A model generated the notes under the pieces. It made no database searches and was not told the origin of the DNA. It worked only from the letters and a program-made list of their open reading frames with translations. A program made the translations under genes and the position numbers. From an uncultured Gammaproteobacteria bacterium (lineage in GTDB: Bacteria > Patescibacteriota > Patescibacteriia > Patescibacteriales > WJLG01), in NCBI GenBank assembly GCA_964547855.1, contig CAZJPG010000004.1:1-54050 (forward strand): a stretch of DNA of 54,050 bases. Reading direction: 5' to 3'. Numbering within the stretch: the first letter of the stretch is position 1; every line of letters begins with the position of its first letter. Shown piece by piece: positions 20,172-24,351 of this stretch.

Positions 20172-23060
20172 ATGGAAAGATACGATCACAAAGCCATTGA
20201 GAAAAAATGGCAAACAAAATGGGAGGAAGATGGGGTATACAAGACCGGAGAAGACCGCTCTAAGCCGAAGTATTATGTTTTGGACATGTTTCCCTATCCA
20301 TCAGGGGCTGGTTTGCATATCGGTCATGTTAAGGGTTATTCGGCGACCGACGTTCTGGCTAGGATGAAAAGAATGCAAGGCTTCAATGTTTTGCACCCGA
20401 TCGGTTGGGACGCTTTTGGTTTGCCGGCGGAGAACTATGCTTTAAAGAATAAAGTCCACCCTAAAATTCAAACAGAGGAGAATGTATCTTATTTTAAGCA
20501 ACAGCTTAAGGGTTTGGGTTTTTCTTACGATTGGGACAGAGAGATAAATACTACGGATCCGGAGTATTATAGATGGACGCAGTGGGCCTTTATTAAGATG
20601 TGGGAGAAAGGTTTGGCCTACGAGTCGTTCGAGCCGATCATTTGGTGCCCATCTTGCCAGACTGGCTTGGCTATGGAGGATTTGGAAGACGGAAAGTGCG
20701 AGCGCTGCGGCAGTGAGATCGAGCGCAAGCCAATGCGCCAGTGGGTTATAAAAATAACTCAATATGCTGATCGTTTGCTTGCCGATTTGGATAAATTACC
20801 GGGATGGGAGGAGTCGATCAAGGAGATGCAGCGCAATTGGATAGGAAAATCAGAAGGTGCGGAGATAATATTTCAAATAAAAAATAAAAAAGAAGAAACA
20901 AAGAATGAGGGGGTAAAAGTCTTTACTACGCGTCCGGACACTTTATTTGGAGTAAGCTATGTGGTTCTCGCGCCAGAACACCCGTTGATCGGCGAATTGC
21001 GGTCAGATATCGGCAACTGGGGAGAGGTTGAGGAGTACATCGAAAAGGCTAGGGCCAAGACTGATTTACAAAGGACCGATTTGAACAAAGACAAGACTGG
21101 TATGAAGCTGGATGGTGTTATGGCAATAAATCCAGTTAACGATGAAAAGGTTCCAGTATTCGTCGCTGATTATGTTTTGGCTAATTATGGCACTGGTGCG
21201 GTAATGGCCGTTCCAGCGCACGATCAGCGTGATTATGAATTCGCCCGCAAATATAGTTTGCCAATGAAGCAAGTGATCAGGCCAAAGGATTGTTCTTGGG
21301 ATGACATAAACAAGGTCTTAAAAGGATTGAAAAATATTAAATCCATAGCCGATGAGAGCGGGGTCAAGTTTTGGCTAATGGGAGGATTGGCCTGTGCTTT
21401 CCACAATGGAGTTATATATCGTCAGCATGGAGACTTGGATCTTATAGTCGAGAATGAAGTCGATCTCTCTGGATTCGGTTTAGTTTTGGAAAAGGCGGGT
21501 TTTTTGAAAAAAGGAGAAGAAGTGGACTGTGAAGACCCGAGCCGCAATCATTGTATATATAAGAACGACGAAGGATTGGAGGTCGGAGTCAGTCTTTATA
21601 AACATTTGCCTGATTTTAAGACTCCTGGCCTATCAGAGGAAAAGAAAAAATATAGTGACGTGGAAACTCTCGTGATCAGCCGTGAATATGCCGAGATTTT
21701 TAAGCAGCATCAAATAGAGAAGCGCAACCTTCCTAAAGATATTTTGGATAAGCAATATTTTGGTGGAAAGGCCTTTGAGGACGAGGGTGCTTGTGTGAAC
21801 TCTGATTTTTTAGATGGTCTACCGACGGACGAGGCTAAGAAAAAAATGACAGAATGGCTTGAGCAAAACGAAAAAGGAAAAAAGAAGGTTAATTATAAAT
21901 TGAACGATTGGGTGTTCTCCAGACAAAGATATTGGGGTGAGCCGATTCCTTTCGTGCATTGTGAAAAGTGTGGCACTGTGCCCGTTTCTGTCGACGAGTT
22001 GCCGGTTAAATTGCCGGATGTCGAGCATTATGAGCCGACCGGAACGGGGGAGTCTCCATTGGCGAATATCACGGATTGGGTTAATACGACTTGTCCTAAA
22101 TGCGGTGGAGCGGCTAAGCGCGAGACCAACACGATGCCGCAATGGGCTGGTTCTTCTTGGTATTATTTGCGTTATATGGACCCAAAGAATGATGAAGCTT
22201 TGGTCGATTTGGCCAAGGAGAAATATTGGTCGCCAATCGATTTCTATGTCGGCGGCGCCGAGCATGCCACCCGTCATCTGATCTATGCTCGTTTTTGGCA
22301 TAAGTTCTTATTTGATATTGGCGTCGTTAATTACGAAGAACCGTTCACTAAGTTGCAGCATGTCGGGCTTGTTTTAGGTACTGACGGCAGAAAGATCAGT
22401 AAGCGCTTGAACAACGGAGCCAATCCTTTGGATGTGGCGGCGGAATTCGGCGCCGACGCTTTACGCATCTATGAGAATTTCATGGGTCCATTTGGCCAGT
22501 CTTGTGCCTGGGGCAGCAATGGCCCTGTGGGTGTGCGTCGATTTTTAGATAAAGTTTGGGCGATAGCCAATAGTGGTTTTTCTCCTGAAAGCAGTAAGGA
22601 AGTTTTGAATTTGCTTCACAAGACCATTAAAAAGGTCGGTGACGATATTGCGGAGTTTAATTTGAATACGGCCGTCTCGGCTATGATGATCATGGTCAAC
22701 GCTATCGATGAGCAGGGGATTTCTAAGGAAGATTTTTCAAAGTTCATACAAATACTTTCGCCTTTTGCCCCGCATCTTTGCGAGGAGATTTGGCATGATA
22801 AATTAGGACAGCAAGATGGTGTCTTTAAGACCGAGTGGCCGAAATATGACGAAACTTTAATGAGGGACGAAGTTATAAATTTGGTAGTTCAGGTCAATGG
22901 TAAATTACGCGCCACTCTTAAAGTGTCTCCAGAGATAAACGAAGACGAGGCCAAGAAGGTCGCGTTCGAAAACGCCGATGTTAAAAAGTGGGTCGATGGC
23001 AAAGAGATTGTTAAAGTAGTTTTTGTCCCGGGCAAACTTTTGAATTTTGTAGTAAGATAG
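20172..23060 (+). CDS. leuS: Leucine--tRNA ligase with an inserted nucleotidyltransferase-like domain
   Basis: MFPYPSGAGLHIGH, FTTRPDT, AVMAVPAHDQRD (CP1), DWVFSRQRYWG, KISKR, VVQVNGKLRA; ~160-aa insertion at ~21282-21770. Confidence 0.96.
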   Translation: MERYDHKAIEKKWQTKWEEDGVYKTGEDRSKPKYYVLDMFPYPSGAGLHIGHVKGYSATDVLARMKRMQGFNVLHPIGWDAFGLPAENYALKNKVHPKIQTEENVSYFKQQLKGLGFSYDWDREINTTDPEYYRWTQWAFIKMWEKGLAYESFEPIIWCPSCQTGLAMEDLEDGKCERCGSEIERKPMRQWVIKITQYADRLLADLDKLPGWEESIKEMQRNWIGKSEGAEIIFQIKNKKEETKNEGVKVFTTRPDTLFGVSYVVLAPEHPLIGELRSDIGNWGEVEEYIEKARAKTDLQRTDLNKDKTGMKLDGVMAINPVNDEKVPVFVADYVLANYGTGAVMAVPAHDQRDYEFARKYSLPMKQVIRPKDCSWDDINKVLKGLKNIKSIADESGVKFWLMGGLACAFHNGVIYRQHGDLDLIVENEVDLSGFGLVLEKAGFLKKGEEVDCEDPSRNHCIYKNDEGLEVGVSLYKHLPDFKTPGLSEEKKKYSDVETLVISREYAEIFKQHQIEKRNLPKDILDKQYFGGKAFEDEGACVNSDFLDGLPTDEAKKKMTEWLEQNEKGKKKVNYKLNDWVFSRQRYWGEPIPFVHCEKCGTVPVSVDELPVKLPDVEHYEPTGTGESPLANITDWVNTTCPKCGGAAKRETNTMPQWAGSSWYYLRYMDPKNDEALVDLAKEKYWSPIDFYVGGAEHATRHLIYARFWHKFLFDIGVVNYEEPFTKLQHVGLVLGTDGRKISKRLNNGANPLDVAAEFGADALRIYENFMGPFGQSCAWGSNGPVGVRRFLDKVWAIANSGFSPESSKEVLNLLHKTIKKVGDDIAEFNLNTAVSAMMIMVNAIDEQGISKEDFSKFIQILSPFAPHLCEEIWHDKLGQQDGVFKTEWPKYDETLMRDEVINLVVQVNGKLRATLKVSPEINEDEAKKVAFENADVKKWVDGKEIVKVVFVPGKLLNFVVR

Positions 23061-23121: not shown

Positions 23122-24351
23122 ATGAAACGTCCTCATTATTTTTCCGGAAAAGTCTCCGGAGGTTTTGTTTCCATCTATTCCTCTAAAATAATTACCGGCA
23201 TCTCTTCGGCCTTAATGGGGCTGTTCTTGCCGATTTTTTTATTCGAGGCCCTAAATCTTAATCTGAGTCATGTCTTGATCTATTGCTTGATCGATTATTC
23301 TCTTTACGGATTATTGGTTTGCTTCGGGGCTAGGTTCTCTCTTAATAAATTAGGGATCAAAAAGTCTATTATCGTTAGTGTCTTTTTTGGGGCGATTTTT
23401 TATTTAGTACTGTTTTTGATGACCGAAAAAGGCGCCAGTTTCGGGCTGACCGACCATAATCTGTATTTGATGCTTGGACTTACGATCTTGTTCATAAATT
23501 TGAATCGCTGGCTCTATTGGGTGCCGATGCATACAGACCTGACAAAATTCACTGACAAGGATAACCGAGTTAGGGAGATGTCCTTTTTAGAGGCCACGTT
23601 GACATCTTTGCGCGCCATCGTTCCATTTTTTGGTGGATGGATATTGTTAGAGTATGGATATAACGTGCTTTTTCTAATGACCATTTTTATTTATTTTTCC
23701 TCGATATTTCCGTTGCTTAGATTGCCTAAGACAGAGGAGAGATTCAGCTGGACCTATGGGCGCACTTGGAAGGAATTTTTTTCCAAGAAACGCCGTAAGA
23801 CCGTTCTGGCTTTTATGGGTGATGGAGCTGAAAATGTAGTGTCAGGAACTATTTGGCCGATATTCATTTGGCAGCTTTTAAATGGTAATTATTTTACTGT
23901 CGGCGCCATTTCTTCGTTAATAGTTTTGGCTACGATAGCCTTGCAATTAGCCGTTGGAAGATTCGCTGATCTTGGTAAACGTGATAAGATCCTGCGCTGG
24001 GGCACAATTTTGTACTCCGTTGGTTGGGTAGTTAAGATATTTATCGAGACAGCTTTTCAGATATTCGTTATTTCCACTTATCATAATTTGACCCGCATTT
24101 TCACTCGTGCCCCATTTGATGCCTTGAATTATCAAAAAGCCGCCGATCAAGGGCATTATGTTGACGAATATACTGTCATTCATGAAATGGCTTTAATGTT
24201 CGGACGCATCGTGGTGATCTTGGCGATGCTGGCTTTGATCCCGATTTTTGGCATCGCTCCAACCTTTATTTTGGCAGCTTTATCGACCTTATTGATGAAT
24301 TTCTTGATCGATAGCAAGACCGTAGAGGCCATAGAAGCTAGGGTTGGCTGA
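23122..24351 (+). CDS. MFS-like transporter
   Basis: ~12 predicted TM segments in a 6+6 layout; GRFAD motif. Confidence 0.8.
   Translation: MKRPHYFSGKVSGGFVSIYSSKIITGISSALMGLFLPIFLFEALNLNLSHVLIYCLIDYSLYGLLVCFGARFSLNKLGIKKSIIVSVFFGAIFYLVLFLMTEKGASFGLTDHNLYLMLGLTILFINLNRWLYWVPMHTDLTKFTDKDNRVREMSFLEATLTSLRAIVPFFGGWILLEYGYNVLFLMTIFIYFSSIFPLLRLPKTEERFSWTYGRTWKEFFSKKRRKTVLAFMGDGAENVVSGTIWPIFIWQLLNGNYFTVGAISSLIVLATIALQLAVGRFADLGKRDKILRWGTILYSVGWVVKIFIETAFQIFVISTYHNLTRIFTRAPFDALNYQKAADQGHYVDEYTVIHEMALMFGRIVVILAMLALIPIFGIAPTFILAALSTLLMNFLIDSKTVEAIEARVG

Follow-up and report, generated by a model that had tools for sequence, protein, structure and literature searches.

The window analysed here, i.e. 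the whole stretch of 54,050 nucleotides of the contig CAZJPG010000004.1 (assembly GCA_964547855.1) from an ultra-small bacterium of the Patescibacteria, carries a leuS gene for a bacterial-type leucyl-tRNA synthetase (LeuRS), into whose editing domain CP1 a second, smaller enzyme has been inserted in frame—a nucleotidyltransferase (NTase) of the Pol-beta type. The host protein reaches 1030 bits with the TIGR00396 model leuS_bact (cut-off 548), and its full-length AlphaFold2 model (predicted local distance difference test, pLDDT, 83; predicted template-modelling score, pTM, 0.74) superimposes on the E. coli LeuRS-tRNA complexes 4aq7 and 5on2 with a target-normalised template-modelling score (TM) of 0.84. 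Judged from its sequence, the window leuS encodes a normal LeuRS with both the synthetic and the editing motifs intact (Table 1).

Table 1 Positions of leuS, of its diagnostic motifs and of the nested NTase domain in the window
Feature	Position	Strand	Basis or remark
leuS, bacterial-type leucyl-tRNA synthetase, host of the insert	20172..23060	+	962 aa; TIGR00396, AlphaFold2 model
HIGH motif H49-I-G-H52, synthetic site	20316..20327	+	H49/G51/H52 invariant in 60 relatives
CP1 editing domain, part before the insert, aa 221-370	20832..21281	+	PF13603: 221-381 = model 1-151
CP1 T-rich region T252-T-R-P-D-T257	20925-20942	+	T252/T253/R254/D256/T257 invariant in 60 relatives
Editing aspartates D351 and D354	21222-21233	+	invariant in 60 relatives
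Nested ANT(2'')/Lnu(A)-type NTase domain, aa 371-533, CP1 I4b loop	21282..21770	+	PF10706, profile, AlphaFold2/Foldseek
hG[GS] motif G404-G405	21381..21386	+	G/S at both positions in 28/28; aligns with G27-G28 of ANT(2'')-Ia
R417-Q-H419-G-D421-L-D423, predicted phosphate-binding Arg/His and metal-binding DxD	21420..21440	+	alignment to R40/H42/D44/D46 of ANT(2'')-Ia
Catalytic-strand segment E470-V-G472-V-S474	21579..21593	+	motif table (28 copies) and alignment with free-standing outgroup NTases
Codon GGA (G472)	21585-21587	+	second acidic position in most copies
C-terminal helical lobe, R518/K522/D523/D526	21723..21749	+	invariant in 28/28 copies, any host
CP1 editing domain, remainder after the insert, aa 534-564	21771..21863	+	PF13603 on the insert-less protein
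KMSKS-type loop K741-I-S-K-R745	22392..22406	+	K741/S743/K744/R745 invariant in 60 relatives

An earlier note, made from the sequence alone, had described about 160 extra in-frame residues between LPMKQVI and AFEDEG, placed them at the end of CP1 and pointed to the string FWLMGGLA...RQHGDLDL within them. The translation contains this string exactly as described, the extra segment amounting to 163 residues (PKDCSW...QYFGGK) that follow LPMKQVIR; its place, however, has to be corrected, the insert lying inside CP1, about 31 residues short of the domain's end. In the native LeuRS the match to PF13603, the Pfam model of the LeuRS editing domain, is broken at model position 151 of 185, whereas with the residues 371–533 left out it becomes a single unbroken match covering 1–185 of 185. 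Because of this restored match, and because the syntenic ortholog at the locus L022 has only a plain 18-residue loop in place of the 163 residues, the segment is regarded as an insertion. Contigs from three other studies—of a bioreactor, wastewater and a digester—exhibit zero differences from the window across the stretch and both junctions.

Concerning the exact place of the insertion, the CP1 domain of the LeuRS from Streptococcus pneumoniae contains a variable long loop, I4b, between the helices α2 and α3 and after the catalytic Asp347, the Thr373 of which (Asp+26) lies about 4 Å from a ligand bound in the editing pocket (PMC3747510). In the window the first slot residue is D354+17; in the alignment, the plain L022 loop covers D+17 to D+34. 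Since the position relative to the editing aspartate matches, the slot would correspond, by alignment, to the bacterial I4b loop beside the editing pocket.

The isolated insert is recognised by the Pfam family PF10706 (Aminoglyc_resit) with 22.6 bits (gathering cut-off 21; E = 1.3e-4), and its relatives by 25–30 bits; the whole window LeuRS scores 18.6 bits and thus stays below the cut-off. A search of the PDB with the single sequence gave ANT(2'')-Ia at a suggestive E-value of 0.07, and a profile of 13 family sequences retrieved ANT(2'')-Ia (4xje) with E = 1.7e-11 and Lnu(A) with E = 6e-7. The AlphaFold2 model of the isolated domain, built on 20 copies, has a pLDDT of 90.4 and a pTM of 0.87 (within the full-length model the pLDDT of the insert is 72–97 per block of ten residues) and adopts the two-lobed α/β fold of NTases. 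Foldseek aligned the domain model over its whole length (158–164 columns) with Lnu(A) (4fo1; TM 0.66/0.68) and ANT(2'')-Ia (4wqk, 4xje and 5cfu; TM 0.70–0.72), the weaker matches being MenT1 (0.52–0.58), FKRP/LicD-type proteins (0.40–0.49), TM1012, and terminal uridylyl and CCA-adding enzymes. Sequence, profile and predicted fold therefore agree in identifying the insert as a complete NTase of the Pol-beta type, akin to ANT(2'')-Ia and Lnu(A); the likeness to ANT(2''), Lnu and LicD enzymes proposed in the earlier note holds well for the first two and more weakly for the third.

It should be noted that ANT(2'')-Ia (AadB) and Lnu(A)/LinA (4fo1, 4wh5), although similar in size (161–177 residues) and sharing the two-lobed fold, are only 16–22% identical to the window domain, the similarity ending past the nucleotide-binding half, and that they are free-standing, whereas the window domain is nested in another enzyme and is not known to have a link to antibiotics. 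The NCBIfam resistance models for ANT(2'')-Ia, Lnu(P), Lnu(D) and Lnu(C) yielded 16.3, 20.2, 18.7 and 13.1 bits, respectively, against cut-offs of 300–350, and on the basis of these scores the domain does not belong among these named resistance enzymes.

In ANT(2'')-Ia, two Mg ions are held by Asp44, Asp46 and Asp86, the last of them being the catalytic base, the phosphates are stabilised by Arg40 and His42, and the variants D44A and D86A are dead (Cox et al., PMC4313920). The signature hG[GS] followed by [DE]h[DE]h is found in the window as G404-G405 and D421-L-D423-L. A motif table of 28 copies of the family, taken from several host proteins, revealed D421, D423, R518, K522, D523 and D526 as invariant and G404, G405 and R417 as nearly so; the DxD pair, a part of the signature named in the earlier note, is thus retained throughout. 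Only tentatively, K522 might be taken as the equivalent of K147 in ANT(2'')-Ia.

The position of the third carboxylate is less straightforward. The catalytic strand carries two acids in 21 of the 28 copies, which read E-x-[DE]-I-G, and position 472 is occupied by D or E in 24 copies but by Gly in the window, where the GGA codon is reproduced in the independent assemblies X2, X4 and X5. In favour of 472 as the equivalent of Asp86 speak the free-standing relatives with a single acid (RLEL, KLDI, KLEF), which align there, the D-x-x-P anchor that recurs as LDCEP in ANT(2'')-Ia and as LDIHP in Lnu(A), and the distance to the hairpin glycine. Position 470 would be favoured by the copies nested in the β-subunit of phenylalanyl-tRNA synthetase (PheRS-beta; see below), which keep the first acid alone and yet match the family consensus at all 36 of 36 conserved positions. 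The hhalign alignment of the family with ANT(2'')-Ia ends at residue ~69, short of the strand in question, and that with Lnu(A) extends further, without confidence and with a shift by one strand.

The occupation of the loop by alternative domains, a survey of which the earlier note had advised, proved to be strikingly common. Among the 120 closest LeuRS relatives (56–81% body identity), for which the distance between the landmarks PAHDxRD and SRQRYWG was measured—77–89 residues in plain LeuRS—the slot is enlarged by at least 90 residues in 36 sequences and by 25–89 residues in 29 others. The large inserts are NTases from two or more lineages (PF10706-like and PF14907-like), NUDIX domains of several kinds, a Ser_hydrolase and two families without a Pfam match. 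A second hot spot of insertion, occupied by Ham1, PDDEXK_3 or hydrolases, is located at the entry to CP1. With regard to the Pfam-less cassettes, designated unkA (P0075, P0080, P0089, P0094 and P0121) and unkB (P0062, P0100 and P0120), one kind has about 127 residues with GFWNEF...FYFIFKH and the other about 115 residues with GGPWYIHSEG.

The turnover is seen even between the closest relatives. Within the tight clade of eight sequences to which the window LeuRS belongs, the slot contains an NTase, a NUDIX, a short repeat-derived segment or nothing. The gene order POR–DsbA–xth–small open reading frames (ORFs)–leuS–RrnaAD is common to the window and the loci L021, L022, L024 and L025, for which reason their leuS genes are considered orthologs and not paralogs; at these syntenic loci the slot is occupied by an NTase in the window and L024, by a NUDIX in L025 and by a palindromic repeat in L021, and it carries no insert in L022. 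The cassettes stand in place of one and the same loop of ~18 residues, which is bounded by ...K-x-V-V on one side and by A-F-x-[D/E]-E-G on the other. In the host tree of 133 rows, prepared with the insert columns left out, explaining the presence of the NTase alone takes 9 changes, of which well-supported branches enforce no fewer than 7, and all the insert types together take 47.

As far as the neighbourhood of these genes is concerned, leuS of the window is directly followed by the gene for a 409-residue membrane protein (23122-24351), the L021 counterpart of which was called MFS_1, and RrnaAD stands directly after leuS in L022, L024 and L025. The slot of the closest LeuRS relative of the window (P0035, 81% body identity; L021:2593-2730) is a low-complexity segment of 56 residues encoded by an in-frame pair of 19-nt inverted repeats, TTTTTGTCATTCCGAGCGA / TCGCTCAGGATGACAAAAA; since this slot holds such a pair, selfish palindromes also land in the LeuRS slot. 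The same palindromic repeat was looked for in the window and is absent from it. Peptides resembling 'CHSER...SFA.AQDD' occur in the slot of P0045, P0047 and P0055.

The NTase family itself is small. An exhaustive profile search through 1.84 billion representative proteins returned just 29 matches at E ≤ 1e-3, and scans of one genome per species together with the metagenomes of the Joint Genome Institute (JGI) gave 18 loci; a word-indexed search for free-standing homologues of the window insert found none. Most loci are LeuRS genes with the domain in the same loop, in records labelled Parcubacteria or Patescibacteria, with further LeuRS-nested copies in some genomes labelled DPANN, one of the records being labelled Woesearchaeota; two records labelled Proteobacteria are suspected to be mis-binned contigs. 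More than 25 independent loci share this architecture, and the nested copies are nearly all exactly 161 residues long.

The same family has been found outside LeuRS as well. In PheRS-beta, a 161-residue NTase is nested in the B5 domain, splitting its Pfam match (L005:5971-6453 and L018:4008-4490); in UvrC (773 residues; P0021, L027:1001-3322), a diverged copy is nested in the endonuclease domain UvrC_RNaseH_dom; and P0007 (L026:303-785) is a free-standing gene of 160 residues with its own start and stop, branching inside a clade of nested copies. The family is under purifying selection, as documented by dN/dS ratios (nonsynonymous to synonymous divergence) of 0.09 both in the PheRS-beta pair and in L010/L017 and of 0.19 in L009/L020.

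Several individual loci deserve mention. Ahead of the PheRS-beta cassette in L005 and L018 there is a repeat-like peptide, TDADLTLTNAE. The contig L026, 1 kb in length, is AT-rich upstream of P0007, which is flanked by a divergent partial ORF without a Pfam match and by an AP_endonuc_2-like gene. Hybrid LeuRS proteins are encoded by L009:4912-7992, L014:174-3866 and L020, their first two thirds being of the bacterial type (TIGR00396, 888-916 bits) and the last ~370 residues corresponding to positions 566-937 of the archaeal TIGR00395, with the NTase in the same loop; the Woesearchaeota-labelled LeuRS is one of these hybrids, with a bacterial-type catalytic body and an archaeal-type C-terminal third. 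Two enzymes are nested in one LeuRS in L010:4294-7755 (Ham1 and NTase), L016:420-3899 (PDDEXK_3 and NTase) and L014:174-3866 (NTase and Ser_hydrolase). A leuS of a close relative (L002:5-2959) was called as two ORFs of 841 and 125 residues, the latter with Anticodon_1, which would be due to a frameshift or a sequencing error.

The histories of cassettes and hosts were compared by the approximately unbiased (AU) test. The host data rejected two clades of the domain tree, that of L003, P0041 and P0044 (p = 3e-79) and that of L010, L017, L012 and L013 (p = 7e-10), and the domain data rejected the host clade of L003, L012 and L013 (p = 5e-6) as well as a ten-row clade of P sequences (p = 1.5e-6), all these p-values being indicative only, as the clades were picked after the trees had been seen. 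The identities of body and domain correlate with r = 0.39. Some cassettes, at least, have thus travelled from one leuS gene to another apart from the host gene. As to the window, its grouping with P0034 was not rejected by the domain data (AU p = 0.19), and vertical descent of its cassette within the eight-row clade stays compatible with them.

The GC content at third codon positions of the insert is 0.41 versus 0.49 in the rest of leuS, a shallow dip that also covers the neighbouring part of CP1. Relatives of the domain were looked for in viral contigs and none were found, so that a phage origin is not supported. The pair L012 and L013, with a dS (synonymous divergence) of 0.045 in the cassette and 0.31 in the body, was considered as a candidate for a recombination tract of cassette size; over 8 kb around leuS, however, the divergence forms a mosaic, from 1% to 20% in windows of 240 nt, and the tract of low divergence, which begins close to the 5' edge of the cassette, overshoots the 3' edge by ~800 nt. 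This mosaic looks like recombination at the population level, not like a cassette-specific exchange, and has not been used as evidence for cassette transfer.

From the turnover of the slot, the multiple hosts and the selection acting on the family, it appears that the NTase is a swappable passenger enzyme, carried as a cassette in the permissive I4b loop of LeuRS; a probability of roughly 60% is assigned to this reading. Of the two functions offered in the earlier note—LeuRS as a scaffold for a passenger enzyme, and an NTase acting on tRNA ends or on LeuRS-targeting inhibitors—the former is the better supported, the family being present also in PheRS-beta, in UvrC and as a free-standing protein. 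As a passenger, the domain would bind Mg-complexed nucleoside triphosphate through R417, H419, D421 and D423 and would transfer the nucleoside monophosphate to a hydroxyl of an acceptor. The acceptor is probably independent of the host protein, since the LeuRS, PheRS-beta, UvrC and free-standing copies all present the same conserved surface, and LeuRS may supply expression and a stable scaffold without the cassette being a part of its own function.

Several observations weigh against the passenger reading. LeuRS is the most frequent host by a wide margin, only three of the nested copies found residing elsewhere, and the slot is situated at the rim of the editing pocket, so that a function coupled to the 3' end of tRNA has to be reckoned with. 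The choice of the AU-tested clades with the trees in view, mentioned above, belongs here, too, as does the result that no direct or inverted repeats and no target duplications were found bracketing 21282/21770. With neither of these and with no endonuclease domain found in the window LeuRS by Pfam, a mobile element at the DNA level (insertion sequence, miniature inverted-repeat transposable element or homing element) was rejected as the vehicle.

The remaining points against it concern the window copy itself, which is unusually diverged and evolves at about three times the rate of its sisters. In the domain tree its nearest relatives are P0003 and P0004 (clade support 99/96), and its terminal branch measures 1.04 changes per site, compared with 0.38–0.48 for these two. 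It deviates from the consensus at 8 of the 37 family-conserved positions, most copies deviating at 0–5, and the mismatches (including D116G, F117L, G104S and T9I) cluster in the catalytic strand and the D-x-D-F motif. With respect to P0003, the body is 78% but the domain only 44% identical, and the dN of the domain is 3.3 times that of the body, the highest ratio of nine pairs. In the alignment with the free-standing relatives, position 472 is the only universally conserved acid after the DxD, and it is G in the window; the D86A substitution abolishes the activity of ANT(2'')-Ia, while the window copy is without the second acid of the strand.

These features are what would be expected if the window insert were a catalytically dead remnant that has lost its third carboxylate and can at most bind nucleotides, being kept since the domain must fold for the essential LeuRS and a precise deletion is rare. 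This explanation, which partly overlaps with the passenger reading, is regarded as unlikely, but as one to be taken seriously: in addition to the Gly472 codon confirmed in three independent assemblies, the branch of the window copy is the longest non-outlier branch of the domain tree, and close orthologs manage without any insert. On the other hand, 29 of the 37 conserved positions have been retained, including GG, R-x-H-x-D-x-D and R518/K522/D523/D526, and E470, the first of the two acids, is still present on the same face of the strand. The PheRS-beta copies, which likewise possess the first acid only, match the consensus completely and evolve under the low dN/dS of 0.09 given above. Moreover, the dN of the window domain (0.5) is far below the saturated dS; owing to this and to the 29 positions kept, the window copy is not regarded as free of constraint. 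The chances that it still transfers nucleotides are put at about even; if inactive, it might persist as a folding domain that perhaps still binds nucleotide.

The position of the slot suggests another explanation, namely that the NTase is a device coupled to the editing site and to tRNA, nucleotidylating the 3'-terminal ribose of tRNA-Leu once its CCA end has swung into the editing site, or a ligand bound there, and so marking, repairing or blocking tRNA in the manner of the MenT and CCA-adding NTases, which act on tRNA ends. The short distance of the I4b Thr373 from the ligand in the editing pocket of the S. pneumoniae enzyme (PMC3747510) would fit it, as would the fold, resembling that of the tRNA-modifying MenT1 and, more remotely, that of CCA-adding enzymes, and the leaning of the hosts towards tRNA synthetases, which make up two of the three, with LeuRS as the dominant one. 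The same domain, with the same invariant residues, is nevertheless found nested in PheRS-beta (B5 domain) and UvrC and also as a free-standing protein, and close orthologs with unchanged editing motifs hold a NUDIX, a serine hydrolase or nothing in the loop. Furthermore, the top structural matches are NTases acting on small molecules and not on RNA, and PADLOC gave no match for the window copy. Coupling to tRNA is thus considered rather improbable.

The two ideas could also be combined. Patescibacteria and DPANN may exchange small enzymes (NTase, NUDIX, Ham1, serine hydrolase and the Pfam-less families) as in-frame cassettes, integrated at the protein level, between loops of essential proteins—the I4b loop and the CP1 entry of LeuRS, the B5 domain of PheRS-beta and the RNase-H domain of UvrC—with the LeuRS NTase at the same time targeting the 3' end of tRNA or a ligand in the editing site and adding a layer of control or defence. 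In this full form, the proposal is a speculative one with a low likelihood.

The MenT/AbiEii toxins have to be mentioned in this connection. MenT1 (8an4/8an5) shares the minimal Pol-beta NTase fold with the insert, the match (TM 0.52–0.58) being weaker than those to ANT and Lnu; MenT is linked to tRNA acceptor ends through its substrate, whereas the window domain is linked to tRNA through its host, in which it is nested without a partner antitoxin gene. A toxin is not expected inside an essential enzyme. With PADLOC blank for both the window copy and P0007, and with an AbiEii match (E = 0.0015) for L017 only, this candidate was rejected.

An antibiotic-modifying enzyme directed at aminoglycosides, lincosamides or a LeuRS inhibitor, with LeuRS as its carrier, is very improbable. 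It would agree with ANT(2'')-Ia and Lnu(A) as the nearest solved structures and as representatives of the Pfam family, with the models for Lnu(P), Lnu(D) and ANT(2'')-Ia as the only NTase matches in NCBIfam, and with the precedent of NF040702, an NCBIfam family of isoleucyl-tRNA synthetases (IleRS) with a GNAT domain, for a synthetase carrying a domain that modifies small molecules. The named resistance models, however, score only 16–20 bits where 300–350 are required, the similarity is limited to the nucleotide-binding half (hhalign with ANT(2'')-Ia reaching residue ~69), the acceptor-binding half being unlike, and nothing ties the NUDIX, Ham1 and serine-hydrolase cassettes to such drugs. That the insert is an artefact of misassembly, or an intein or intron removed before maturity, is hardly credible, given the identical contigs from three other studies across the junctions, more than 25 independent loci built alike, the open frame, the purifying selection on the domain in relatives, no Hint or intein match in Pfam and ends untypical of an intein (Pro at the start, ...GGK at the end, followed by Ala534 instead of C, S or T), although no RNA runs containing the stretch were found that could bear on removal.

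In comparison with canonical bacterial LeuRS (4aq7/4arc from E. coli and 2bte from T. thermophilus), with which it has all the domains and motifs in common, the window LeuRS differs by the 163-residue enzyme domain in place of an I4b loop of ~18 residues. At the equivalent place of CP1, the eukaryal and archaeal LeuRS have the insertion I4ae, a helix that covers the editing pocket (PMC3747510). Both this insertion and the IleRS of NF040702—a comparison that rests on the name of the family, with its N-acetyltransferase domain, and not on the placement of that domain—represent class Ia synthetases carrying an added module, as the window LeuRS does. The I4ae insertion is, however, no enzyme, whereas the loop of the window LeuRS houses a whole one that is exchanged for other enzymes among close relatives.

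Bacterial aminoacyl-tRNA synthetases are regarded as architecturally conservative. To our knowledge, textbooks do not mention LeuRS proteins that house an entire enzyme in a loop of the proofreading domain, with the enzyme changing from one close relative to the next, and literature searches aimed at an enzyme-in-LeuRS-loop architecture found no description of it. The window copy represents a natural variant that misses one strand acid, with sisters possessing both, so that their comparison could reveal the catalytic residue. Should the NTase act on the tRNA end beside the editing pocket, it would represent a new kind of control of tRNA charging. If the cassettes are active, the I4b loop would be a naturally validated site of domain insertion for protein engineering, and symbionts with tiny genomes would use essential proteins to carry accessory enzymes, which has implications for the retention and exchange of functions in minimal genomes.

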